A stretch of 64,000 nucleotides of DNA from Escherichia phage vb_EcoM_bov11CS3 (MT884009.2), one strand, 5' to 3'; shown: positions 2,854-41,218, counted from the stretch's first letter. Translations and numbers: made by a program. The notes: a model not told the origin generated them from the sequence alone.

Positions 2854-3045
2854 TTATATTTTTTCGCCTATGTAGTCCGGTCGGTTTTTCTCTGTCATGC
2901 GCTTTAGCAATTCTTGCATGTTACTTATGGCTTGTAGCGTATCCTCTTCCAGACTTGAATCAACATAATCAGGATCGTCTATAACCTTTCTATGATTATG
3001 ATAACGCAGTACCGCCAATACCTTTCTAACTTGTTCGATATTCAT
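2854..3045 (-). CDS. hypothetical protein (63 aa)
   Basis: ATG start; track ORF. Confidence 0.5.
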   Translation of the reverse strand: MNIEQVRKVLAVLRYHNHRKVIDDPDYVDSSLEEDTLQAISNMQELLKRMTEKNRPDYIGEKI

Positions 3046-3057
3046 TTTTATCGCTCT

Positions 3058-3192
3058 TTAAAACAAGGTGCCAACCGTTTCCAATAGATCACTGACTACA
3101 AGGACAATACTGATCAGCACATATCTAACCATAAGGGGGAAGAGCGCCAGCGATCCCGCCACAATCCCCAAGGTGATAATTATCTTTCTCAT
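3058..3192 (-). CDS. small hydrophobic peptide (44 aa), not in ORF track
   Basis: ATG 2 nt after the stop of upstream gene; predicted transmembrane peptide MRKIIITLGIVAGSLALFPL... Confidence 0.3.
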   Translation of the reverse strand: MRKIIITLGIVAGSLALFPLMVRYVLISIVLVVSDLLETVGTLF

Positions 3193-3194
3193 GG

Positions 3195-3479
3195 TTAACG
3201 GTTCACGTAAGTTTTCCCGTTTACGGTGATGGGCAGATCCTCCAGGTCTGGATCTTCCTTAAGGTCGCGAGCAAGTTCACCGCACCGGACACCCTCGAAT
3301 CCGTAGTACTCTGTTGTACCGTCATTAAAAGTTTTAGCGGCAAGGCATAAGCGATAAGTAACCCCGATTTGATTGACGGCATGAATATCCGTTAGATTAA
3401 CCTCTTTTGCCAGCTCTTTAGCCATTACAGGCGCATTAAGTCCAACAACCAGGGCAACCACTGCGATCATCTTTTTCAT
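3195..3479 (-). CDS. small secreted protein with N-terminal signal peptide (94 aa)
   Basis: N-terminus MKKMIAVVALVVGLNAPVMA resembles a Sec signal peptide. Confidence 0.55.
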   Translation of the reverse strand: MKKMIAVVALVVGLNAPVMAKELAKEVNLTDIHAVNQIGVTYRLCLAAKTFNDGTTEYYGFEGVRCGELARDLKEDPDLEDLPITVNGKTYVNR

Positions 3480-3567
3480 TGTGTCTATCCTCTTTCTGCT
3501 ACGTTTAAGGCGGCAACCGCCTGTTTATGCTTTGTTGGTTAATTTTCGGGTATCGGTATAAATTAAA

Positions 3568-3783
3568 CTATGCTGTACGCTCAACTATAACAACGGCTTG
3601 AGGGATCTCACCTTCCACCACTATCAAGGCTTTTTTCTGCGTAATGGATATCTTTACCCGCTTCAGCGTGGCGGTAAAGTCTTTCATTTCGTCGCGTGGT
3701 GTTTTAGTGCAATGCCAGATCTCAGGCTTACCTATTTGCAAGCCGCGTAAAAATTCTGTTTTGCCTGTTTTGTTAGTGATCAT
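3568..3783 (-). CDS. hypothetical protein (71 aa)
   Basis: ATG start; track ORF. Confidence 0.5.
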   Translation of the reverse strand: MITNKTGKTEFLRGLQIGKPEIWHCTKTPRDEMKDFTATLKRVKISITQKKALIVVEGEIPQAVVIVERTA

Positions 3784-3792
3784 TTGCCAACC

Positions 3793-3897
3793 TCACCTGA
3801 TACCGTTGGAAGACAAGATCACATTAGCCATGGTTGCAATCAGGCCAATACCCAGGGCAATAACCAGGATCACCGCATCAATTAATTTCTGTTTCAT
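3793..3897 (-). CDS. small hydrophobic peptide (34 aa), not in ORF track
   Basis: ATG preceded by SD aagagg; sequence MKQKLIDAVILVIALGIGLIATMANVILSSNGIR. Confidence 0.3.
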   Translation of the reverse strand: MKQKLIDAVILVIALGIGLIATMANVILSSNGIR

Positions 3898-3987
3898 TTT
3901 GTTTTCCTCTTCTTGTTCCAGGTGGCGGACCATTCCACCGCCTTATGTATTATGCTTTGTAAGATGGTTGTTTGTTTTCAAACTATT

Positions 3988-4167
3988 TTAACGATAATCA
4001 TCGTACGCTTTATTAACCTGGCGAATATAACATTCAAAAGCCAGATCAATAGATTTATATTCACGGATATACTCACCATAGGAAACCGCATACATTTCTA
4101 TAGCTTCCTCATATGCGAGGAGAATAGAATCCAAGCCTACGATCTCAGTCTTTGCAATAATAGCCAT
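3988..4167 (-). CDS. small protein (59 aa), not in ORF track
   Basis: ATG with SD aagagg; promoter-like TTGACA-16-TAGTAT at 4215-4242. Confidence 0.35.
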   Translation of the reverse strand: MAIIAKTEIVGLDSILLAYEEAIEMYAVSYGEYIREYKSIDLAFECYIRQVNKAYDDYR

Positions 4168-8220: not shown

Positions 8221-8418
8221 TTATTTGTCTTTATGGCGGTATCGTTCTGCCTGTCGTTCACGTTCCAAAAGTAGGCCAGGCAATTTACGATCATAATGAT
8301 TTCGCCAGATCTTTCCAAATCTTTTTGGCTTATTCAGTTTATTGTTACGCTGGCGTCGTTCCGGCAGCTCTTCGGAATCATGAGATCGCTTTACAATCTT
8401 CTCAAAATTAATCTTCAT
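8221..8418 (-). CDS. small highly basic protein (about 65 aa; track start 8442 is TTG)
   Basis: ATG with SD aagggggg; Arg/Lys-rich. Confidence 0.45.
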   Translation of the reverse strand: MKINFEKIVKRSHDSEELPERRQRNNKLNKPKRFGKIWRNHYDRKLPGLLLERERQAERYRHKDK

Positions 8419-8779
8419 ATATTCCCCCCTTGCTAACTTCAATATTGGCCTGAATAGCCCGGATACGCCGTTTTATAACCTCCTGATCCTTGCAATCATA
8501 TCCCCAAAAGTCTACGATTTTTGCGCCTCCAGCCTTTAGGCGGTATAGTGTTTCTTGCATCTTGTAGGCCGGGATCGGTCGCGGTGTTACCTGGTCGCCC
8601 TTCTCATTCTTGTACTTAATAATGTAGTCTTCATTGTCGTTGAATATCCAAAATGGGTATTCTGTGAGCGCGTTGCTCTCTTTTTCGTTTTTAGATTGGA
8701 TCTTGTTTACAATTAAAGCCGTAGCAATAGCGCCAATAATAAAACTTGCCCCACTGATCATGTTACTTTCTCCTTTCAT
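8408..8779 (-). CDS. membrane-anchored protein (123 aa)
   Basis: N-terminal hydrophobic segment; ATG start. Confidence 0.55.
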   Translation of the reverse strand: MKGESNMISGASFIIGAIATALIVNKIQSKNEKESNALTEYPFWIFNDNEDYIIKYKNEKGDQVTPRPIPAYKMQETLYRLKAGGAKIVDFWGYDCKDQEVIKRRIRAIQANIEVSKGGIYED

Positions 8780-10280: not shown

Positions 10281-10679
10281 TTATTCGTGGGCGCATGTCA
10301 CAATGTGCTTTTTATAGCCCAGGTGGTCAGCAAGTGCCGACAAAAACTCTTCTTCGTAGATCCAGCCGTCGGCAGTGATCCCCATAGCATTTAATGCACT
10401 CTCAAGTGCTGCGTTAGCTTTATCGTAACCGTGACCGCTCGCCTTGCCGCCAGTATAACCGTACTTATTGTTCTTGTTGTCGTGAATCCAAAACACGCAG
10501 TAGTGAGTGTTACCACTGGCGGCGGCATAATACCGGATCTCAGCTACTTCGTGCAAATTATTGTCATCGTCCAGGCCCACCAGATTATAAGCCTTGTAAA
10601 ATCCACGATCACGGCGGCAGTTCTTGACATCAGAAAAAGAAAAGTCCGCATTATCAAAATTAAAGGTAGTGGTTTTCAT
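10281..10679 (-). CDS. hypothetical protein (132 aa)
   Basis: ATG start; track ORF. Confidence 0.55.
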   Translation of the reverse strand: MKTTTFNFDNADFSFSDVKNCRRDRGFYKAYNLVGLDDDNNLHEVAEIRYYAAASGNTHYCVFWIHDNKNNKYGYTGGKASGHGYDKANAALESALNAMGITADGWIYEEEFLSALADHLGYKKHIVTCAHE

Positions 10680-10742
10680 GATTTTATCCTCTTAGTGTCT
10701 TTTGCGATTTCAGTGTATTTTGTGTCAGACCATATGTCAACA

Positions 10743-10939
10743 TTATTTTTTATTAAACCAGTGGTTGATCTGACCTTTTGTCAGGGCGCAACGGTTAAGC
10801 TGTTGCAGGGTATAGCTATGACCGCGACGAAATTTATAAAGGCCTTGCCCGTTGTTGATGGTTACATCCACCCGGCAAATCACTTGATTGGTGACCACCT
10901 GGCGAGTGTTGCGACGTACTTTAATTCCGTAGGCGTTCA
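10743..10939 (-). CDS. hypothetical small protein (about 65 aa; track extends to 11027)
   Basis: Internal ATG with SD agagg preferred. Confidence 0.4.
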
Positions 10940-11026
10940 TGATTTTTTTATCCTCTCTGTTAATTGGTGTGGTGTTGTTCACCTTGCGAGGATAAGAATA
11001 ACAAGAACTGTCCGAGCTGTCAACCA

Positions 11027-11202
11027 TTAGTTAAAATTATTTTTTGGGTAGAATTCTCCAGCCGCCGCCCCTGCCAGGTTAACCATCATTTTTTCGTACT
11101 CTTCTTTATGTTCCAACGCTCCCGCCATAGCCTTTTCAACCAGGGCGATAGCCTCAGCGTCATTAATAGCTACATTTTCCAGGGGGATCATATTACCTTC
11201 CA
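11027..11202 (-). CDS. small protein (58 aa), not in ORF track
   Basis: ATG with strong SD gaggagg. Confidence 0.35.
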
Positions 11203-11467
11203 TTTTTGTACCTCCTCTTCAATTGTTACCTATCCTATAGCATAGGCCCACCAGGTTTGCAAGCCTTCATTCTCTCCTACCTGGTCAGTTAGGCCCTGCC
11301 AGGCTGGCCCCGCCAGGTTGCAGCGGTCAGCGCATCAGGTTAGAAATTTTTTTTTGAAAAGTGTTGACAGCGGCCCCGCCAGGTGGCAAAATATACCTAT
11401 CGAAAGGACGGCAGGCACCGGTGACGGGGGAGACAACCACCGGGGATGGGCGCTGCATGAAATGAGA

Positions 11468-11484
11468 ACGATTATCATTATCGT
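11468..11484. promoter_or_regulatory. Fur-box-like palindromic operator (imperfect)
   Basis: acgattatcattatcgt resembles the GATAATGATAATCATTATC consensus. Confidence 0.35.
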
Positions 11485-11601
11485 CTAAAAATTTATGCAA
11501 AAACTTCTTGCTTTCTTTGTCCTGTGTGTTACTATAATAACAAGCCGGGGCAGTAGGGGCCGGGAGACAATCACCGGGCCTGCCCGTTATTCTGCAAACG
11601 A

Positions 11602-11616
11602 GAATGATTATCATTC
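11602..11616. promoter_or_regulatory. Fur-box-like perfect palindrome GAATGAT-T-ATCATTC
   Basis: Perfect 7-1-7 inverted repeat; 12 of 13 match to the Fur-box core AATGATAATCATT. Confidence 0.4.
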
Positions 11617-11732
11617 AAAATTCTAAATGAGAACTCCTCGCATTTAATAAATTTAATTAGCACGCTAATTACCCTCCGTAACAATTTCCTATAAAATAGT
11701 ATCCACTAAAATATTCCCATATAGAAATTTTA

Positions 11733-11910
11733 AAAATCCATTTCTGAAAACGAAAAATCGATTTCGTCCCCAAAAATTTCAGGTCGAGAGCCGGAACGAT
11801 TTCCAGAAAATCCGATTCAGAAAACGAAAAACAGATCGAGTACTGAGAAATTTATCGAGAAAAATTTTCAGAAAATTCAATCTTTGAAACGAAAAACAGA
11901 TCGAGTACTT
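11733..11910. repeat. Three degenerate 38-bp direct repeats (iteron-like)
   Basis: Copies at about 11733, 11808 and 11873 share gaaaacgaaaaacagatcgagtact. Confidence 0.6.
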
Positions 11911-32004: not shown

Positions 32005-33987
32005 TTATTTGGTGTTATTCTTTGTATCAATCAGCTCACGGTATTCAATCATAGCAGGGGTGTCCCAATATTTCAAGCCTACATGCTTCAAAAGTGGGTA
32101 TTTCTTTTCCAATCTTGCAATATAGGCCTTCCCGCATTTAACTCGGTTGGCGATTAAGATTTTGGCACGATGATTTAGCTCACTGTGCTTCCACGTGGTG
32201 TTACCTTCCCACTTGTGGAAATGTGGCCGATAATTTCCAAAATCTTGCATGGGAATAATTTTCCCTAATTGTCTATACAGGCTGTCATAAGAAGTCTCAT
32301 TTGCTGCACGGGTCAGTAAGAATTTCCAAGCATCCTCTTTCAACAGGTGCTCCACATTCTTCTCTGTAACATACTGGCAATCAGGATCAGTCCAAAGCAG
32401 ACGAGATTCAGATACCAGATACAGATCTTCACCTTCAGGAATCTGAAGTGCCGCACGTACACGGTCATAATCTTGCTGGTAGATGTTACTCATCTGCCCC
32501 AGCCAACAACTTCCACGTTGGATATCACCCTCATAAGGGATGCAGTGTTTAATCTTCCGGAACTCTGCCTTAGTAATACGCTCACGGCGGAAGTAACCAT
32601 CCTTCTCAAGTTTTTTAACCCAATAGCCTGGCTCATAATGAGTTTTTGTTTCACCTTTCTTCGCAGGTCGGCGAGGGAGCTCTGATAACAATTTGATCGT
32701 ATCTGCAAAGAACGGGTGGTGTGCTGCCTCTTTAAACTCTTTCACCAGATCAGTGTTCCGGCAATAGAAAACGTTGCGTCCGGTGATCTCGCTTAAGTAG
32801 TTACACTTATTTCGGTTATATTTGCCGTCTCCGTCGTTAAATACTAAATAAACTCCCCGTAAGAATTCTACCTTTCCGTAACAAGCGTAACCTATGCGGC
32901 CTTTATTTAAGCCGCCAGCGAAGATCTCACAGTCCCCCAAATTTCCTAGGCCTGTCTCTTCCCATCGTTCCCACATAAAATTCTTACCGAAGATGTGCCC
33001 GAACACTCCACTGTTCTTCATCATCTCGCGTGCTTCTGAGGATGTTTTTGCTGTCTCCAATTCCGCAACAACTTCTGCCCCACGTAAACGGATACCCTCT
33101 TTGACAAAAGCCTCCAGGCGATCCTGGAATCCACCGTCGTCATGGCCCTCTATGGTCCATTCGCGCCCAGGGTTAATATTGCAATCCCCAATAGGAATCT
33201 CTACACAGATTGCAGGGTAGTCTGTCAATGTTTCCAGGAATTTAGATCGGTAAGGTTGGTGACCCATTACCACGCGACTCTCGTCAGAGCTGGTATAACC
33301 TTTCAGGATAGTCATTTTCCAACCATCTTTCTCGTAGCGATACTGCGCCTCAACCTTGTCACCTTCCAGCATCTTACTGGTCATAGGGTCGGTAACGGTA
33401 AACGGAAACTTTGCATAGCGTAGGCATGACGCAATAGCAGTGCGATATTTCAGAACATGCTCTTTCTTAACATGGAACTGAACTTTTACCCCGTTGTGCT
33501 CTTCAGTCTTCCGCTCGCGGATCTTGGTAACGTTTGGGATACCCTGATCCAAGAACAATAGATATGTGCTTTCAACACCGTTGTGCACACTAATCACATC
33601 GAAAGTGTCCACCATGCTGAACGGGGCCTTTGAACCTACACCTTTATTACCTACCAGAGCGTTGCTGTTGCGCTTGGTTGACTCCCCGAGGTTCATGAAA
33701 GTGTTGCGGACCATCTCTTCTGACATACCCAATCCAACGTCCTGCACAAAGAAGTATGGTTCAAGGTCTGTAGGGGAGTGAATGATGATCGGTACATCAC
33801 CCCGTCCAGACTCAACATGGGAGTCCACAGCATTGAAGATTGGTTCACGGCAGCTTGCCAGCACCTTATCTTCGTAAATCCCTTTAATGATTAGCCCAAA
33901 AGTCTCTTTGTTCAGAGAAATTGAGCCCCTGGTGACCTCCATATTCCCGGTTAGTACTGCTTTAGTTTCATTACTGTTTACAATCAT
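32005..33987 (-). CDS. GHKL-superfamily ATPase (Hsp90/MutL/MORC-like fold) of unknown function, 660 aa
   Basis: Bergerat motifs EPIFNAVDS, VQDVGLGM...NLGESTK, GNKGVGSKAPF; ATG with SD aaggag. Confidence 0.6.
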   Translation of the reverse strand: MIVNSNETKAVLTGNMEVTRGSISLNKETFGLIIKGIYEDKVLASCREPIFNAVDSHVESGRGDVPIIIHSPTDLEPYFFVQDVGLGMSEEMVRNTFMNLGESTKRNSNALVGNKGVGSKAPFSMVDTFDVISVHNGVESTYLLFLDQGIPNVTKIRERKTEEHNGVKVQFHVKKEHVLKYRTAIASCLRYAKFPFTVTDPMTSKMLEGDKVEAQYRYEKDGWKMTILKGYTSSDESRVVMGHQPYRSKFLETLTDYPAICVEIPIGDCNINPGREWTIEGHDDGGFQDRLEAFVKEGIRLRGAEVVAELETAKTSSEAREMMKNSGVFGHIFGKNFMWERWEETGLGNLGDCEIFAGGLNKGRIGYACYGKVEFLRGVYLVFNDGDGKYNRNKCNYLSEITGRNVFYCRNTDLVKEFKEAAHHPFFADTIKLLSELPRRPAKKGETKTHYEPGYWVKKLEKDGYFRRERITKAEFRKIKHCIPYEGDIQRGSCWLGQMSNIYQQDYDRVRAALQIPEGEDLYLVSESRLLWTDPDCQYVTEKNVEHLLKEDAWKFLLTRAANETSYDSLYRQLGKIIPMQDFGNYRPHFHKWEGNTTWKHSELNHRAKILIANRVKCGKAYIARLEKKYPLLKHVGLKYWDTPAMIEYRELIDTKNNTK

Positions 33988-34484
33988 TTATTGCGCTCCT
34001 TGTAGTAGATATGACTCCCGAATTGAGCTGTCCTCTGCATCTTTTTTGCCCATTTCGGTCGTACTTTGGTTGTATGGTAGTGTGTTGCTCCACCTGTTAT
34101 GTCCATAGCCATGTATGCAACATGGTTGTTATTATAGACCTTTAGAAGCATCTTTGCAAGACTTTTAGCGTGATCCCATGAATCTTTTTCTGTCACCTTA
34201 AAAGTTTTGCCGTGGTTTGTCCACGAAAACTGGTTAGGTTGGTAGACAATCTTTCTTATAGTGTCTGGGTATTTGGGGTGAGATTTCCTGTTTAGTGTGG
34301 CAAACCCTGATGCCAGCATACCCATCGTGCCATCCCCTCTAGCCTCCCTGTAGATATTGCATGCCAGAATGTTTTCCTTAGTATCTGAGGGCTTGCAAGT
34401 ATGATATACTTTTTGTTTTGGTGCTGCAACAACAGGCAGCGATAAAAATGCGCTCAAAATAATAGCAAAGATCTTAATTTTCAC
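33984..34484 (-). CDS. Secreted cell-wall hydrolase (SleB/CwlJ-like), candidate endolysin, 166 aa, GTG start
   Basis: Signal peptide VKIKIFAIILSAFLSLPVVAAP; NIYREARGDG resembles the SleB EARGE motif. Confidence 0.55.
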   Translation of the reverse strand: MKIKIFAIILSAFLSLPVVAAPKQKVYHTCKPSDTKENILACNIYREARGDGTMGMLASGFATLNRKSHPKYPDTIRKIVYQPNQFSWTNHGKTFKVTEKDSWDHAKSLAKMLLKVYNNNHVAYMAMDITGGATHYHTTKVRPKWAKKMQRTAQFGSHIYYKERNK

Positions 34485-34923: not shown

Positions 34924-36108
34924 TTAAGCTTTAGCTAAAATGGCGCTAAACTCTTCACCAAACTCTTTTACAATCTTCATCAGGTTTGGGTACGCTTTGA
35001 TCAGTTGAGCAACGATCTTGTCACGCCCTTTACCGATAAGCAAGGCATTTCCTAAGGCATTAGGTTTCATCATCGCCATAAAGACTGAGAATACAAAATC
35101 TCGGTTCTCGTCCTTGAAGTTTTCCCAAAGGAAATCGAGGAAGTTTGCCACGCAGCTGACAAGATCTTCATCTGAGATACTTGCATTTTCCATCATATTA
35201 CGAATAGCGATACAACCTTCAGATCCAAGAATCCACAAGATGTCTGGCTGCTTAGGACCTACGTATTCTTTGCAACCCCCTGCCATAATCCGACCGATTT
35301 CCGGTAAATTGCGTTTCTTGGTGTGGTAGGTCCAGATCTCTACCGCTGCAGTGTGACCAATAGCACCTTGCAGAAGAACACGGGCCATAGCGTCAGAAAT
35401 AATACCGCTGTCAAAATCGTGCAGGATATCAGATGCAGCAACCCAAGATCGCGGTGTGGCAAAAGATGGGCAATTAATCTCAGCCATAGCCTCATAATTA
35501 TCAATAGCTGACGGAACTCTTTTCAGATACCCAATTACAGAGGAGTGCACTCCATTAAGGAATGCGTAGTCCTCAATAAACACCTCTGCATTGCTTGTAA
35601 CTTCTACAATGATAAAACGGTTAGCCAGAGGGGCTTCAAGCGCCGAAAGAACCGCACCATCTGTAGAACGGTTACCTGCAGCTACAAAAACAGAGCCCTT
35701 AGGGAATGCATAGGTGCCGCACTTGTGGTCGAGCATAATTTGCATTGCAACCTTTTGCAGGTAATTATCTGCATGAGTAAGCTCATCCAGAAAGATAATT
35801 CCGCTCCAGTCCGGATCTGCAGGCCAGAATTCTGGAATTGCAAACACTGTACGTGTAGTTCCATCCGCTTCTACAGGGATAGGTAGCCCAGATAAGTCGG
35901 CAGGATCTTTATCTGACAGTCGCACGTCAACCAGGTTGTCATCTCGCTCACCGAACATATTATCGGCGATCTGCTTCATCACCTGGCTCTTCCCCACGCC
36001 CATTGGTCCTAAAATCAGGACAGATCGGTTATGACGTTGGGCAAACTGAATGATAGCTGGCAACTCACGGACAGTGATTTGACCACTTTCAAATACGTTT
36101 CTTGACAT
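34924..36108 (-). CDS. MoxR-like AAA+ ATPase, 394 aa
   Basis: Walker A VLILGPMGVGKSQ and Walker B IIFLDE; ATG start. Confidence 0.8.
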   Translation of the reverse strand: MSRNVFESGQITVRELPAIIQFAQRHNRSVLILGPMGVGKSQVMKQIADNMFGERDDNLVDVRLSDKDPADLSGLPIPVEADGTTRTVFAIPEFWPADPDWSGIIFLDELTHADNYLQKVAMQIMLDHKCGTYAFPKGSVFVAAGNRSTDGAVLSALEAPLANRFIIVEVTSNAEVFIEDYAFLNGVHSSVIGYLKRVPSAIDNYEAMAEINCPSFATPRSWVAASDILHDFDSGIISDAMARVLLQGAIGHTAAVEIWTYHTKKRNLPEIGRIMAGGCKEYVGPKQPDILWILGSEGCIAIRNMMENASISDEDLVSCVANFLDFLWENFKDENRDFVFSVFMAMMKPNALGNALLIGKGRDKIVAQLIKAYPNLMKIVKEFGEEFSAILAKA

Positions 36109-36416
36109 TAGTAAAAGTCCTCTACTTGTGTGTAAGTGTTTTCAAAGTTTTCCAAAACAGATGCCACATCGGATCTGTCAATATCGTACACAACTTCCCA
36201 GTTGTATGCAACCCTTTCTGCTGTTGCTTCTTCAGGACTTAGCCGTCTACTGGGGTGAAAGAATGTTGGGGTACACCTTCTTAGTTGTCTTCCGGTTTTC
36301 CCATAACAATATCTGTGGATAACTTTGTCAAAATTTAACTCTTTTTCTGCACAAAGTTCGTGTTTCTGGTATAACATGTTTATTACTCTTCTAAGCGGCA
36401 TCCCTGCCACCACCAC
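36108..36416 (-). CDS. hypothetical protein (102 aa)
   Basis: Track ORF; overlapping stop/start. Confidence 0.5.
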   Translation of the reverse strand: MVVAGMPLRRVINMLYQKHELCAEKELNFDKVIHRYCYGKTGRQLRRCTPTFFHPSRRLSPEEATAERVAYNWEVVYDIDRSDVASVLENFENTYTQVEDFY

Positions 36417-36419
36417 CTG

Positions 36420-36800
36420 CTAGAATGCAGTTCGAATCCAGACAAGGTTCTTATCTGCCCAATCATAGAGGCAAGTCATTGCGCTATTGAATTGCTCACA
36501 CGGAGGATAATCTTCTTCCATCTGGCGCATAGCAGATCCTTGTGGGTAAAGCTCCCGTGCTGCAAGCCACGCATCGTAGTCATCCACGGTATCGAAGTAG
36601 TATACAACATCCTCCAACTCAGGATCGAACTTTGAATTATCAGGATCCAGTTGTTCAGGGAACTTGGAGCGTAACTTGCCAGCCACAATGCTTGCCAACT
36701 CGCTAACATGCTTATTGTCCCACTCTACTAGTTTCCCGTCTTCAGCGATGCGTCCTAACCACTGATCATGAAGGTCAACTGTTGTCTTCCACCGGGCCAT
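36420..36800 (-). CDS. hypothetical protein (126 aa)
   Basis: Track ORF. Confidence 0.5.
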   Translation of the reverse strand: MARWKTTVDLHDQWLGRIAEDGKLVEWDNKHVSELASIVAGKLRSKFPEQLDPDNSKFDPELEDVVYYFDTVDDYDAWLAARELYPQGSAMRQMEEDYPPCEQFNSAMTCLYDWADKNLVWIRTAF

Positions 36801-36802
36801 TA

Positions 36803-37060
36803 TCAGTCCACCTCTTCTTCTCGTTGCAGTTCAAGATACCCGTAGGTCTGGATATCTTCAAGGGTGTGGAAATCCCCATCTGCCGCTAAGGCACGAACAA
36901 CTTGGCACAAAACTTTATGAGGAACTTCATCCAGACCCAGATTCAGTGCAGGGAACACCTTATCTAAGTCAACAAAATAAACGAACTGTAGCTCACCAGC
37001 TTCAAAAGGTGTATCTTCAATAAACATCTTCTCGGCATTAGTCAAGATCTGCACTTTCAT
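36803..37060 (-). CDS. hypothetical acidic protein (85 aa)
   Basis: Track ORF. Confidence 0.5.
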   Translation of the reverse strand: MKVQILTNAEKMFIEDTPFEAGELQFVYFVDLDKVFPALNLGLDEVPHKVLCQVVRALAADGDFHTLEDIQTYGYLELQREEEVD

Positions 37061-37437
37061 TATTCTGCCTCCTCTTCTTTTTCTTCGGCGTTAGTTTCAG
37101 TGCTACCCCACTCTGGAGTTTCCACCTCGATAGTAAACTCACGCACTACACGGTAATTGCCCATGAAGCGCTCCACCTCGTCAAGGCTTATGGCGAGGCC
37201 ATTGGCAACCAGGTCTGCAGCACCCTCTTCTACCAGATAGTCCAGATTGGCTTCCAAAGCTTCAGGCTCGAACCCTGTCAATGCAATCAGATAACCTTTC
37301 CCTTCATCAGGTAGGACAATACAGCCCAACTGATTTTCTTTAAAAAGGCAGTGACCATCATTATTGATGGGGTGTTCATTGCAGTAAATAGCTGCACGAT
37401 AAGTAGCTTTAGACATCGGTAAGGCCTCCTTAGGCAA
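37060..37437 (-). CDS. hypothetical protein (125 aa)
   Basis: Track ORF. Confidence 0.5.
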   Translation of the reverse strand: MPKEALPMSKATYRAAIYCNEHPINNDGHCLFKENQLGCIVLPDEGKGYLIALTGFEPEALEANLDYLVEEGAADLVANGLAISLDEVERFMGNYRVVREFTIEVETPEWGSTETNAEEKEEEAE

Positions 37438-37708
37438 TTGTCATTTTACATTCTTGAAATTTTAACACAAGACGGTGATTGTGTCTAGTGTCTAAAAAGA
37501 TTTTTTCAACCATCAGGCACACGGTATAACCGTCCATCTTGTTAACAACAAAATCTCCAAGGTGAGGGAGGATGTCCCCTGGATTGGGGAAACATAACCC
37601 GCTCAAGAAGGCATCATCGGTGGTGGACTTAATGGATTTCCACACATTGTCTGCCTGAACATTTTCACCCACATAGTATACACTACCACATGCCTTCATC
37701 ATAGTCAA
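37430..37708 (-). CDS. hypothetical protein (92 aa)
   Basis: Track ORF. Confidence 0.5.
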   Translation of the reverse strand: MTMMKACGSVYYVGENVQADNVWKSIKSTTDDAFLSGLCFPNPGDILPHLGDFVVNKMDGYTVCLMVEKIFLDTRHNHRLVLKFQECKMTIA

Positions 37709-38604
37709 ATCTCCGCGTAAATTAAACTGGAATCAGTATACTTCTTTAACGGGTAAATATCCTGTCCATAGATGCCGTCATTAAACACCTCATCTACCCA
37801 AAGGCTACACTTATATCCCATCATTTCTAAAACGCCCATCTCTTCTTCGGTGAACTTATCACCGCTCTTGCAAGATGTCAATACCTCATTCTGTACTCTT
37901 GCTACCTCGAAGCGGTTATTGGCAATATCACTATTGGCAATCAAATACTCACCTAAAGGGTGTGCAGCATTAAAGATGCACAGTGGACGGTTGACGTAAT
38001 AGTCTCCTGGTGTATAAAAATTGTTGAGATCCTTCACCAGAACATTCTTATCAGTCACTTCATTTATAACATCATGCATATCACACATCTTTATATGTTT
38101 GAGGATTCCATCCCCCATCACAAAATAAAAACTTGCTGAGACACTCTCGGCATAGATCTTACTAGATCCGTTGTAGTTGTATTTTACGCGAATGCTTACA
38201 GGGGTTTTGCCTGTCGCGTTAGCCATCATCCAAAGGAACGGAAGTTCAAACCTCTCCTCTGAGGAAACAAAAGGTGAAGTTGCCAGAGATCGGAAACCTC
38301 CAGAAAAGTTGAAAGTTACAGAGCCGCTCCGGCGATATGATACCGCATATTCTACTTTTATATCGACATAGCCGTTGGAGTAAGTGTGGCCTCCATTATC
38401 CAGATATGTCCACTTATCAGATCCGGATACCAGCCTACGCTCAATAACCTTCATTACTATAGGAATTAGCGGGTTGGTACAAACCGATTTTGAAGTAGCT
38501 TTATCATCCAAAGCCTCATAAATTGCAGAAAGGATATCACCTGCTGAGAGATTGGTTGTGATATCTTGTTTCCACCGAGTGCTAAAGCTGTTAAGATTTG
38601 CCAT
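37705..38604 (-). CDS. hypothetical protein (about 299 aa; track GTG start 38646 lies upstream of the predicted promoter)
   Basis: ATG with SD aggag; first gene of the minus-strand unit. Confidence 0.5.
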   Translation of the reverse strand: MANLNSFSTRWKQDITTNLSAGDILSAIYEALDDKATSKSVCTNPLIPIVMKVIERRLVSGSDKWTYLDNGGHTYSNGYVDIKVEYAVSYRRSGSVTFNFSGGFRSLATSPFVSSEERFELPFLWMMANATGKTPVSIRVKYNYNGSSKIYAESVSASFYFVMGDGILKHIKMCDMHDVINEVTDKNVLVKDLNNFYTPGDYYVNRPLCIFNAAHPLGEYLIANSDIANNRFEVARVQNEVLTSCKSGDKFTEEEMGVLEMMGYKCSLWVDEVFNDGIYGQDIYPLKKYTDSSLIYAEI

Positions 38605-38644
38605 GATTAAGTGCTCCTGTGTTCGTTTTCTTTCGAATGGGTGC

Positions 38645-38715
38645 ACTATATCGTAGATTTATAGTAAAGTCAACACGTTTTTGAGGTTGACATCTGTCGA
38701 GGCACTTGATAAGAT
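38645..38715. promoter_or_regulatory. Divergent promoter region (minus TTGACT-17-TATAGT at 38645-38673; plus TTGACA-17-TAAGAT at 38687-38715)
   Basis: Back-to-back sigma70-like hexamers at the strand switch. Confidence 0.45.
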
Positions 38716-38746
38716 TTCTTCACCTGCAGAGCACGAGAGACAACTC

Positions 38747-39724
38747 ATGAATCTTGAAAAATATTATACACCAGAAGAGTTAGAGCGCCTGCTCAAAAAA
38801 TACAGACGCAAACAAAATAATGCACGGAAACGAGATATAGAGTTCAACCTGTCATGGGAAGAATACCTCCTATTTGGTAAAAAACTTTTAGGAGAGGGGG
38901 TATGCGACTATACCCTTATACCTTTCGACATGCACACAGATGAAAACGGGCTGGGGAATCCTTTCTACCCATCTCTGGAGCGGATAGATGATGAAGGTCC
39001 TTACGCAATTGACAATTGTTGTGTGGTAGGGTTGAGGTGCAACGCTCTGAAAGACTGTCTGGTAGATAAAAAGACTGCAATATTGATAAAAGACAAAACT
39101 GATCGAAAAATTGTCCAGCAGATGATGCTTCACCTGAGCGAAGAGCGTATGGAGAAATTGAAAGGTGATTATACTTTTGAAGATTTCATCTTGCAATATG
39201 GGACAGAAGAAGATAAACTAGCACTTTTTGACGAAGAGGAAGAAGATATGTCACCAATGCAGGACTTTAAAAATTTCATGGCTGATCGTGCAGCCAACAA
39301 ACACATTTCAGACATCGTAAACGAAACTGTGACAGAAGAAATTGGAGAACAGAACTCTGAAGAGGAAAAAGAGCCTCAGGAGGTCGAAGAGGAGATTGCA
39401 GAAGAGGTTCCTGCACTGCCTGATGATGTTGAGGTTGCTAAGGCTTACACTTTCTATTGTCAAACGTTCTACGATGCAGGTATGAAAGTTGATCTGTCGT
39501 TCAGCCAATTTAAGAGTTCGTATGTTCGCAAATGCTGTGCTTTAACTGGTGAACGTCTCGGAGCTGGACTTAAGCCCCTGTTAGTGACCGACTGGAATAA
39601 AGGTTTCACCAAAGGTAACTTTATGGTAGTATCTCCAATTATGGAGAAAGCTATGACAGATCTTATGAAGACCACCCGCATGACAATGACAGAGTTGGCA
39701 GGTATTTTCAAACACGTTAAATAA
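38747..39724 (+). CDS. Tandem HNH-like domain protein (about 325 aa; track start is TTG at 38681)
   Basis: SLERIDDEGPYAIDNCCVVGLRCNALK and C-terminal CALTGERLG...LVTDWNKGFTKGN; acidic linker; ATG with SD gagaga. Confidence 0.4.
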   Translation: MNLEKYYTPEELERLLKKYRRKQNNARKRDIEFNLSWEEYLLFGKKLLGEGVCDYTLIPFDMHTDENGLGNPFYPSLERIDDEGPYAIDNCCVVGLRCNALKDCLVDKKTAILIKDKTDRKIVQQMMLHLSEERMEKLKGDYTFEDFILQYGTEEDKLALFDEEEEDMSPMQDFKNFMADRAANKHISDIVNETVTEEIGEQNSEEEKEPQEVEEEIAEEVPALPDDVEVAKAYTFYCQTFYDAGMKVDLSFSQFKSSYVRKCCALTGERLGAGLKPLLVTDWNKGFTKGNFMVVSPIMEKAMTDLMKTTRMTMTELAGIFKHVK

Positions 39725-39757
39725 TGACAGGGGCCATTGGCCCCTTCTGGAGTTTTA

Positions 39758-41218
39758 ATGGATAGCAGAAGTTCAGAAATCATTGCCTCACAAAAAGATG
39801 ATGCCCTGAGAATGTTGCAGGCTGCACGTATGTATCTCCTTGAAAAGCTGCCGTTTTACGGCACACTGCTGTCAGGGTTGCAGTTCGTAGAAAACCACAC
39901 ATGGTGCTCCACCATGGCAACCGACCATAAACGCATCTACTACAGCCCCGAATTCATTATGGGATTGGCAGATGAGCGCAAAACAATTCTTAAAGCATCT
40001 CTGACTGACGAGCAGTTTGAAATGGCTGAGGTTTTCTATTCCCCTAAATCTGTGAAAGAGGTGGCCTTTCTTCTGTCACATGAGGTGGGGCATATTATCT
40101 GTGATCACCTAGTCCGTGGTAAAAGCTTTGAGCCAGAGCTGTTCAATATTGCTTGTGATCACGTTATCAACACAGGCCTTGTGGTGGACTTTAGCAAGCC
40201 TCCTTGTGTTTTCTTCCCGAAGGGGAAAAGCACTACGTTCGTAAAAGGTAAGCCTTTTGGTTTCTTAGCCAGCTGCTACTGCGACATGAGGTTTCATGGA
40301 TGGATTGCTGAGAACGTCTATGCAGTTCTTGATAAGCAAAGAGATCAGAATAACGGTAAAAGTAAGAGTGGTAAAGGTGATAACTCTCAGGGGGATAAGC
40401 GACAAACCGATGATCACATGAGTGGGAACGGTGGCACCAGTGATGATCTCGGAAAGGCTATGGGGTATGATCAGCCACAACCTGTAATCAGCCAATCTGA
40501 TAAAGATCAGGCCATGCAAGACTCTGGTGACATGCTGGAAGCAGCAATGCAAGCTTCTGGAGGTAGTTGCCCTGAGGCGGTGCGTGAGTTTGTCAAGAAC
40601 AGAGGTAAGCCTGTAATCAACTATATAGACATCATTAAGCAACGTATGTTGTCTAAACGAAAGGCTGAACTAACCTACAGAAAGCCTGGTCGCCGATCTG
40701 GATCTTTGACCAGCACAATGCGAAAAGTTGGGGCTATAAACAAGAACCAGCACGTTATTGTTCCTGGTCGTAATCCGGAAAACACTATAGATATTGTGGT
40801 GGCTTTAGACGTTTCTGGCTCGATCTCTCAAAGAACTTTAAAGAAAATGTTCAATGAGATCACCGGATTGTGCAATCTGTATAAAGAGTTTAAGGTTACG
40901 ATGTTCTGTTGGTCAACCGAGGTTGGAGAGGTCAAAGTATACACTCGCGGCAACATAGACGAGATGATCAACTATGAGGTCCACTCAACATGGGGCACAA
41001 CAGCTGCTTGCGTGTTCGAGTATCTGGATGCCAATATACCGAATGCAAAAGATGTCATCGTCCTGACCGACCTATACTTTGAGCATAACTTTGAACAAAA
41101 GGCTGTTGACAACAAGTGGAAAAAGTACGATACTTTATGGGTTCTCACCGAGGGGTATAATAAAAATTATATCCCGAGCTTTGGGAAAACTGTGGAATTA
41201 ATCGAATACGCCAAGTAA
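39758..41218 (+). CDS. VWA-domain protein with N-terminal HExxH metallopeptidase-like domain (about 486 aa)
   Basis: HEVGHIICDH zinc-binding-like motif; MIDAS-like VVALDVSGSIS; ATG with SD ggag; the track TTG start is upstream. Confidence 0.75.
   Translation: MDSRSSEIIASQKDDALRMLQAARMYLLEKLPFYGTLLSGLQFVENHTWCSTMATDHKRIYYSPEFIMGLADERKTILKASLTDEQFEMAEVFYSPKSVKEVAFLLSHEVGHIICDHLVRGKSFEPELFNIACDHVINTGLVVDFSKPPCVFFPKGKSTTFVKGKPFGFLASCYCDMRFHGWIAENVYAVLDKQRDQNNGKSKSGKGDNSQGDKRQTDDHMSGNGGTSDDLGKAMGYDQPQPVISQSDKDQAMQDSGDMLEAAMQASGGSCPEAVREFVKNRGKPVINYIDIIKQRMLSKRKAELTYRKPGRRSGSLTSTMRKVGAINKNQHVIVPGRNPENTIDIVVALDVSGSISQRTLKKMFNEITGLCNLYKEFKVTMFCWSTEVGEVKVYTRGNIDEMINYEVHSTWGTTAACVFEYLDANIPNAKDVIVLTDLYFEHNFEQKAVDNKWKKYDTLWVLTEGYNKNYIPSFGKTVELIEYAK

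Follow-up and report, generated by a model that had tools for sequence, protein, structure and literature searches.

Opposite-strand genes for a MoxR-class AAA+ ATPase and a zincin-like VWA protein as probable partners in an rV5-like phage

Escherichia phage vb_EcoM_bov11CS3 (MT884009.2) is a 136 kb non-jumbo myovirus of the rV5-like group (Vequintavirus, Vequintavirinae). A sequence-only reading of a 64 kb stretch of its genome, called the window below, had proposed that a MoxR-like AAA+ ATPase and a protein combining an HExxH motif with a VWA domain form a pair split across a strand switch. Both open reading frames (ORFs) were found at the coordinates in question, the ATPase on the minus strand and its candidate partner, a DUF2201 protein, on the plus strand (Table 1). 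The measured spacing is 3.63-3.65 kb, in agreement with the ca 3.6 kb given at first. The locus region is 100% identical to that of Escherichia phage vb_EcoM_bov22_2 (MT884010.2), with matching coordinates. In that record both genes are annotated as 'hypothetical protein', while relatives carry 'MoxR ATPase' for the first and 'putative metallopeptidase' or, wrongly, 'HNH endonuclease' for the second.

The minus-strand gene encodes a protein with intact AAA+ motifs. In an alignment of 46 sequences, sensor 1 (N146), the arginine finger (R164, in LANRF) and sensor 2 (R220, in PRSW) are invariant, as are the key residues of Walker A and Walker B. Among the 5,693 homologues, members at 31-36% identity (E ~1e-45) carry AAA_3 (PF07726), AAA_5 (PF07728) and sometimes bpMoxR (PF20030). 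The AlphaFold (AF2) model has a predicted local distance difference test (pLDDT) score of 84.3. It displays a beta-hairpin insert after helix 2 (residues 75-90, strands 75-81 and 84-90) and a short pre-sensor-1 hairpin (residues 129-134). The helix-2 insert is the defining trait of the MoxR-like clade (PMC13036017). A Foldseek search with the model returned NorQ or CbbQ2 chains at all of ranks 1 to 16, that is, MoxR ATPases with VWA partners. The AAA+ module covers residues ca 1-270 and is followed by a family-specific helical extension (ca 271-394), so that about 120 C-terminal residues are left uncovered by the NorQ/CbbQ chains, of ca 250-270 residues. Searches with the ATPase sequence gave nothing significant in NCBIfam and only P-loop-local matches to ClpB/ClpC in the PDB. 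Judged from transitive homology and predicted fold, the assignment of the product as a MoxR-class AAA+ ATPase holds.

The longest ORF of the partner spans 39737-41218, as first described, but its TTG start does not stand. The true start is probably ATG 39758, because a GGAG lies 7 nt upstream of it, because it is the annotated start and because TTG 39737 falls within a GC-rich hairpin. Residues are nevertheless numbered here from the TTG, in the 493-residue form. Two Pfam families match the protein above their gathering scores, DUF2201_N (PF13203; E=1.2e-27, 97.7 bits for a cut-off of 23.2) and DUF2201/VWA-like (PF09967; E=2.9e-11, 44.0 bits for a cut-off of 26.4). Across 41 sequences, down to 22% identity, the invariant columns of the N-terminal part are H115, E116, H119, H124, A139 and D141. 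[quoted passage not shown] The HExxHxxxxH motif recurs in EcP1, 2L372X, BF, AR9, phiYS40 and Paride. The model of the partner (pLDDT 83.5) shows a helical N-terminal domain, a disordered linker (residues 209-234, of low complexity and rich in Gly, Ser, Asp and Lys), further helices and a compact VWA domain. A less confident segment preceding the VWA domain (ca 311-346) holds a near-invariant RPxRR. The best fold matches in the PDB are to NorD, the partner of NorQ, and the VWA (Rossmann-like) fold is confirmed. From Pfam matches, invariant motifs and predicted fold, the description of the partner as a putative zincin-like metallopeptidase domain joined to a VWA domain holds.

The two families have closely similar distributions. 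By tblastn, 818 phage records contain the ATPase and 723 the partner, and the counts per host genus are nearly equal (ATPase/partner: Escherichia 213/214, Pseudomonas 108/104, Pectobacterium 26/26, Cronobacter 17/17, Achromobacter 17/17). From IMG/VR we retrieved 80 loci with an ATPase alignment, 71 of which were informative, having at least ca 200 nt of downstream sequence. In 68 of these 71, the next gene downstream of the ATPase gene is a DUF2201 gene on the same strand, with gaps of -58 to 517 nt, mostly below 150 nt. The three exceptions are two rV5-type splits and one freshwater viral contig, L041. This contig was at first taken for a locus lacking the partner despite 1 kb of room, and was set aside as uninformative: a radical-SAM-like ORF with a CNFNCSFC motif (ca 2940-4004) stands in the usual place of DUF2201 and continues up to the end of the contig. 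In the genome collection, nine of the ten loci have the two genes adjacent. Adjacency is observed in the N4-like phages EcP1 and FSL SP-058, the jumbo Serratia phage BF, Bacillus phage AR9, Aeromonas phage 2L372X and Thermus phage phiYS40. The AR9 partner is annotated as 'zincin-like protease fused to vWA domain'. Paride has the partner 2.9 kb downstream of the ATPase, past inserted genes. An AAA_5 gene with a DUF2201 gene after it is also met in bacterial chromosomes, for instance in Sulfurivermis fontis (AP018724). When lineages are defined at 50% ATPase identity, 11 are obtained: nine have the genes adjacent, one has them split (the rV5 clade) and one has another neighbor (Vibrio pv27). The ATPase and its partner are the only genes of a 13 kb region that are still detectable across families, and Pfam and PHROG searches found no other VWA gene in the region. 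Comparative genomics strongly supports the two separated genes as partners, since their homologues are adjacent, co-directional neighbors in almost every other lineage having them. The best PDB match of each protein is one subunit of the NorQ-NorD complex. We consider that they form a functional MoxR-VWA pair of the N4 gp24/gp25 family, with a probability of roughly 0.7.

The divergent split occurs only in the rV5 clade, where it is common to Vequintavirus, Henunavirus (Erwinia phage pEp_SNUABM_01) and one BIS47-like Klebsiella phage. The DUF2201 and Srd-like genes are read from the divergent gap in one direction, and those for the ATPase, SleB, rIIA and rIIB in the other. Certrevirus, which belongs to the same subfamily, has kept the genes together: a Certrevirus contig shows a gap of only 40 nt between ATPase and DUF2201, and in phiTE MoxR comes first and DUF2201 last, with a genuine HNH_3 homing endonuclease between them. 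These comparisons indicate that the adaptor gene would ancestrally have followed the ATPase gene in one operon, and that the split of the rV5 clade is derived. The junction between the two genes seems to be a recurrent insertion point, because endonuclease genes have been inserted there in both phiTE and Paride. Every split-layout genus sampled keeps both genes with all motifs, down to ca 44% identity, which argues that the partnership is independent of operon linkage.

The sequence-only reading had also placed the two genes on either side of a divergent promoter region. A strand switch with back-to-back candidate sites is indeed present, but the genes do not abut it: six genes separate it from the ATPase, and a single one, the Srd-like gene, from the partner. 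The surroundings comprise rIIA/rIIB, a helicase gene and the Srd-like gene. GC skew changes sign at the strand switch. GC and AT skews are both positive only at ca 38-46 kb and negative elsewhere in the window; this block is a short rightward-transcribed stretch within a mostly leftward-transcribed window. The Srd-like gene matches phrog_3118 ('HNH endonuclease') and, more weakly, PHROGs for endonuclease VII, Srd anti-sigma and sigma70-decoy proteins; a Pfam search with it gave no match. Its position is constant in all split-layout lineages (Henunavirus, BIS47-like), and it was not detected in phiTE. The hairpin that follows it has no clear T-run and could serve in attenuation, in RNA stability or in processing. 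On the other arm, a 100-residue ORF is possibly co-translated with the ATPase, the stop codon of the one overlapping the start of the other; whether it belongs to the system is uncertain. It was not detected beyond close relatives. It falls in phrog_13164, labelled 'ATPase', yet its sequence is devoid of P-loop or Walker A, and as a result of the label some records annotate two ATPases. Between rIIA and the ATPase block, the leftward arm, which is of early type, also encodes a SleB-like cell-wall hydrolase that is kept in Henunavirus and BIS47-like phages.

Table 1 Features of the ATPase-DUF2201 locus, and insertions between the two genes in related phages. Positions are those of the window unless a contig is named; aa, amino acids.
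Feature	Position	Strand	Details
ATPase gene	34924..36108	-	394 aa; phrog_1297 at 1.4e-110; N4 gp24 family
Walker A	35986..36009	-	GPMGVGKS, aa 34-41; G37, G39, K40, S41 invariant (46 sequences)
Walker B	35782..35799	-	IIFLDE, aa 104-109; L107, D108, E109 invariant (46 sequences)
DUF2201 gene (partner)	39758..41218	+	486 aa from ATG 39758; 493 aa from TTG 39737 (longest ORF); phrog_1314; N4 gp25 family
HExxHxxxxH, putative zinc-binding/catalytic motif	40079..40108	+	HEVGHIICDH; H115, E116, H119, H124
MIDAS DxSGS	40808..40822	+	D358, S360, S362; completed by T421, D445
Divergent intergenic region	38605..38746		~140 bp; strand switch ~38.6-38.75 kb; two back-to-back sigma70-like candidate sites
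Leftward promoter candidate	38673..38645	-	TTGACT-17-TATAGT; consensus match at 10/12 positions
Rightward promoter candidate	38687..38715	+	TTGACA-17-TAAGAT, extended TG; consensus match at 10/12 positions
Srd-like gene	38747-39724	+	directly upstream of DUF2201 gene; annotations vary: 'anti-sigma factor' / 'anti-termination'
Hairpin	39729..39745		perfect GC-rich palindrome AGGGGCC-ATT-GGCCCCT, between Srd-like stop codon and DUF2201 Shine-Dalgarno
Small ORF	36108..36410	-	100 aa; stop overlaps ATPase start (TAATG)
SleB-like cell-wall hydrolase	33984-34484	-	Pfam Hydrolase_2, 2e-19; N-terminal signal-peptide-like segment MKIKIFAIILSAFLSLPVVAAP
Insertion between the pair, phiTE_059	8226-8738 (contig L090)		HNH_3 homing endonuclease, 1e-24
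Insertion between the pair, Paride_0138	10405-11901 (contig L110)		annotated 'homing endonuclease'; weak REase/Vsr-like matches

Names in the databases are misleading for this family. The phrog_1314 group is labelled 'HNH endonuclease' and its members are DUF2201 zincin-VWA proteins, with HExxH and not HNH. The 'HNH endonuclease' or 'homing endonuclease' label has spread over many RefSeq and GenBank phage records, such as NC_041869, NC_019485 (EcP1 gp34), NC_041917 (BF gp213) and OR805295 (Paride_0139). Further names carried by partner homologues are 'DNA repair ATPase', 'anti-sigma factor' and 'virion RNA polymerase'. In addition, GenBank MG065644-MG065690 includes 16 'Campylobacter phage' records (host Campylobacter jejuni) that are 95-96% identical to the rV5-like E. 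coli phage over the 8 kb compared. Judged from the sequences, the Campylobacter host assignment of these 16 records looks doubtful.

A possible mode of action can be drawn from the NorQ-NorD system. [quoted passage not shown] The phage partner has the same domain order as NorD, that is N-terminal domain, linker and VWA, with a candidate finger-like segment before the VWA. Because of this shared order and of the candidate finger, we propose an ATP-driven remodelling device with a zincin N-terminal domain. The ATPase would form a MoxR-type AAA+ ring and the partner would be a NorD-like adaptor or effector. Its VWA domain may dock on the ring, possibly via the RPxRR segment and the C-terminus, by analogy with NorQ-NorD. 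The N-terminal domain, unlike that of NorD, would be a zincin-like peptidase that has kept all its putative catalytic residues. The MIDAS could hold an acidic residue of the target protein. ATP hydrolysis would then pull the linker, so that the target would be remodelled, presented to HExxH for cleavage, or both. With one gene on each arm of the divergent promoter region, the ATPase leftward and the adaptor rightward, simultaneous expression would still be possible. Physical interaction, peptidase activity, expression timing and target are all inferred, and the ATP-coupled cleavage mechanism, taken alone and in its detail, is tentative: we would put it somewhat short of even odds.

Several points weigh against a functional pair at this locus. 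After the split, the ATPase and its partner no longer share a transcription unit, and the promoters are just matches to the consensus. The region as a whole contains 17 promoter-like sites for 13.6±3.5 in shuffled sequences, which is no enrichment; the position of both 10/12 sites within the intergenic gap is the sole point that suggests promoters, and they are to be read as candidates, unmapped matches to the consensus. Of the domain matches expected from the sequence-only reading, DUF2201_N and VWA-like are above threshold in the partner, but Pfam gave only generic AAA matches below threshold for the ATPase itself (AAA_5 at 16.7 bits for a cut-off of 22). Its MoxR assignment is for this reason based on homologues and structure. 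Fold searches, dominated by the VWA domain, did not place the N-terminal domain of the partner. A profile search with this domain gave weak matches around HExxH to selecase (MJ1213), BepA and HtpX. Of the surveyed loci, 91 fall in one ATPase cluster, so that the independent observations number ca 11 lineages and not ca 100. In Vibrio pv27, the gene downstream of a distant AAA_5 ATPase is a different one. Any evidence for interaction, for ATPase activity or for peptidase activity is indirect throughout the families. A literature search found no experiments on the ATPase-partner interaction and no fitness or proteomic data on the pair genes; it returned nothing relevant on DUF2201 and nothing on rV5 together with MoxR. 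The pair genes and rV5-type phages are not mentioned in the CRISPRi-ART paper or in a transposon-mutagenesis preprint, and the phAPEC6 virion paper does not mention the pair genes.

Clues to the role of the pair come from its context. N4 gp24/gp25 are middle transcripts (PMC4193335). In AR9, g028/g029 are downstream of a promoter annotated as early, and elsewhere the neighbors of the pair include genes for a 5'-3' exonuclease, thymidylate synthase, a helicase and DNA polymerase. From these sequence contexts, we weakly favor remodelling or processing in the early or middle phase, for takeover or replication, which we weight somewhat above late virion assembly. In a bolder version, the pair would be a trans-acting ATP-driven protease, an 'FtsH in two pieces', used during early or mid infection by at least six unrelated phage groups and by some bacteria, and remodelling and cutting one specific, conserved host or phage protein for takeover or replication. 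The two halves would, in the rV5 clade, need co-expression only and not co-transcription. We regard this two-piece protease as possible, though on the unlikely side. If true, it would be a general, so far unrecognised infection step and not a virion-assembly helper.

Late action deserves to be weighed first among the other explanations. The pair would serve as chaperone and co-chaperone for head or tail assembly, with proteolytic processing of structural proteins. Such a role in virion assembly or processing was proposed for jumbo phages by Iyer et al. 2021, who took the MoxR-vWA pair of Acidianus two-tailed virus as the analogue (PMC7824862). In Serratia phage BF the pair follows three 'virion structural protein' genes and an Hsp70 gene, and early expression would be compatible with an assembly role. 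However, most of the context is of an early or middle type and tied to replication, with the divergent sigma70-like region, rII, helicase and Srd-like genes added to the N4 and AR9 data above, and the homologues in bacterial chromosomes have no virion to build. We hold late assembly to be unlikely, while keeping it in view.

A second explanation would make of the pair a chaperone for metal-cofactor insertion, like NorQD, CobST, BchID or CoxDE, in which HExxHxxxxH/D would bind a metal and deliver it to a phage or host metalloenzyme, with no cleavage of peptides. Among characterised MoxR/VWA pairs, most serve for metal insertion or for the activation of metalloenzymes (PMC13036017, PMC9976466), NorQ and NorD are the nearest structures of the two subunits, and bacterial homologues are found near thioredoxin and ferrochelatase genes. 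This explanation is improbable given that the HExxH glutamate, which serves zincins as catalytic base, does not vary, as expected for hydrolysis rather than for mere binding, and that no metalloenzyme neighbor is conserved across lineages.

The two genes might also have become independent after the rearrangement, the ATPase working with another partner, for example the coupled 100-residue protein, and DUF2201 on its own. Their opposite strands and separate transcription units, the coupling of the small ORF to the ATPase and the different neighbor of the related ATPase in pv27 would fit such a divorce. It is nonetheless very improbable when set against the joint conservation of both genes and all motifs in the split-layout genera, the narrow distribution of the small ORF and the characteristic need of MoxR ATPases for a VWA partner, when searches of the region gave no second VWA gene. 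The least probable explanation, a conflict system that would serve superinfection exclusion or anti-defence and be akin to the MoxR-vWA-VMAP ternary systems, recalls the ternary systems with peptidase effectors described as such (PMC7159879) and the early, accessory-rich region beside rII, but PADLOC gave no match above noise, so that a known defence system was rejected, only two genes and no third (VMAP) component are kept across lineages, and the core status of the pair in N4-like phages fits an essential function better than an accessory one.

The functional MoxR-VWA pair, which we thus prefer, concerns a module present in more than 700 sequenced phage genomes, including N4-like phages (where it is core), jumbo phages, rV5-like therapeutic candidates, Bacillus phage AR9 and Thermus phages. 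Recognising the split rV5 genes as a pair corrects a widespread mis-annotation ('HNH endonuclease'), and the rV5 split suggests that the partnership outlives the loss of operon linkage. The rV5-like phages and N4 offer tractable E. coli systems for target finding. Should the ATP-driven processing protease be true, it would represent a new class of phage-encoded proteostasis machinery.

The closest known systems are N4 gp24 and gp25 (vWFA) and their N4-like homologues, which belong to the same two families, with the ATPase followed by the HExxH-VWA protein. EcP1 gp33/gp34, annotated as similar to N4 gp24/gp25, match both hidden Markov models. These genes belong to the core set in N4-like phages (Schitoviridae), where they are adjacent, co-directional and middle (PMC4193335), whereas in the rV5-like phage they are 3.6 kb apart on opposite strands. 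The N4-like and rV5-like proteins are only ca 29% and ca 22% identical. The same architecture, a MoxR ATPase with a vWA protein fused to an N-terminal metallopeptidase, was described in group 2.2 jumbo phages by Iyer et al. 2021 (PMC7824862), and the jumbo phages BF, slurp01 and GAP32 are matched by both our queries. The jumbo-phage genes are adjacent and were proposed to act in virion assembly, whereas those of the non-jumbo rV5-like phage are split and lie in an early-type region.

More remote likenesses are found outside these phages. NorQ-NorD, as well as CbbQ-CbbO, RavA-ViaA, CobS-CobT and BchI-BchD, likewise associate a MoxR-class ring with a partner made of an N-domain, a linker and a VWA domain with MIDAS, at 9-21% sequence identity to the phage pair. 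Unlike them, the phage pair has a zincin-like HExxH N-domain, an additional C-terminal helical domain in the ATPase and no metalloenzyme client nearby. The p618 (MoxR) and p892 (VWA) proteins of Acidianus two-tailed virus are a viral MoxR-VWA pair, cited as a precedent in PMC7824862 and likened here by description only; they belong to an archaeal virus, have no peptidase domain and are linked to extracellular tail development.

FtsH and Lon fuse an AAA+ motor to a protease, and the FtsH protease is a zinc HExxH peptidase. Their likeness to the phage pair is conceptual only: the phage motor and peptidase are on separate polypeptides, bridged by the VWA domain, the motor is of another AAA+ clade, and the two systems are not homologous as units. 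The phage pair is not accompanied by the VMAP-like third gene of the MoxR-vWA-VMAP ternary systems (Kaur et al. 2020). Both components of a pair of the N4 gp24-gp25 type are present in the one rV5-like genome, where they are neither adjacent nor co-directional; co-directional adjacency is typical of this pair and not essential to its definition. The pair type itself is already published, through N4 gp24/gp25 and Iyer et al. 2021, and the new part is its rearranged, split layout in the rV5 clade.

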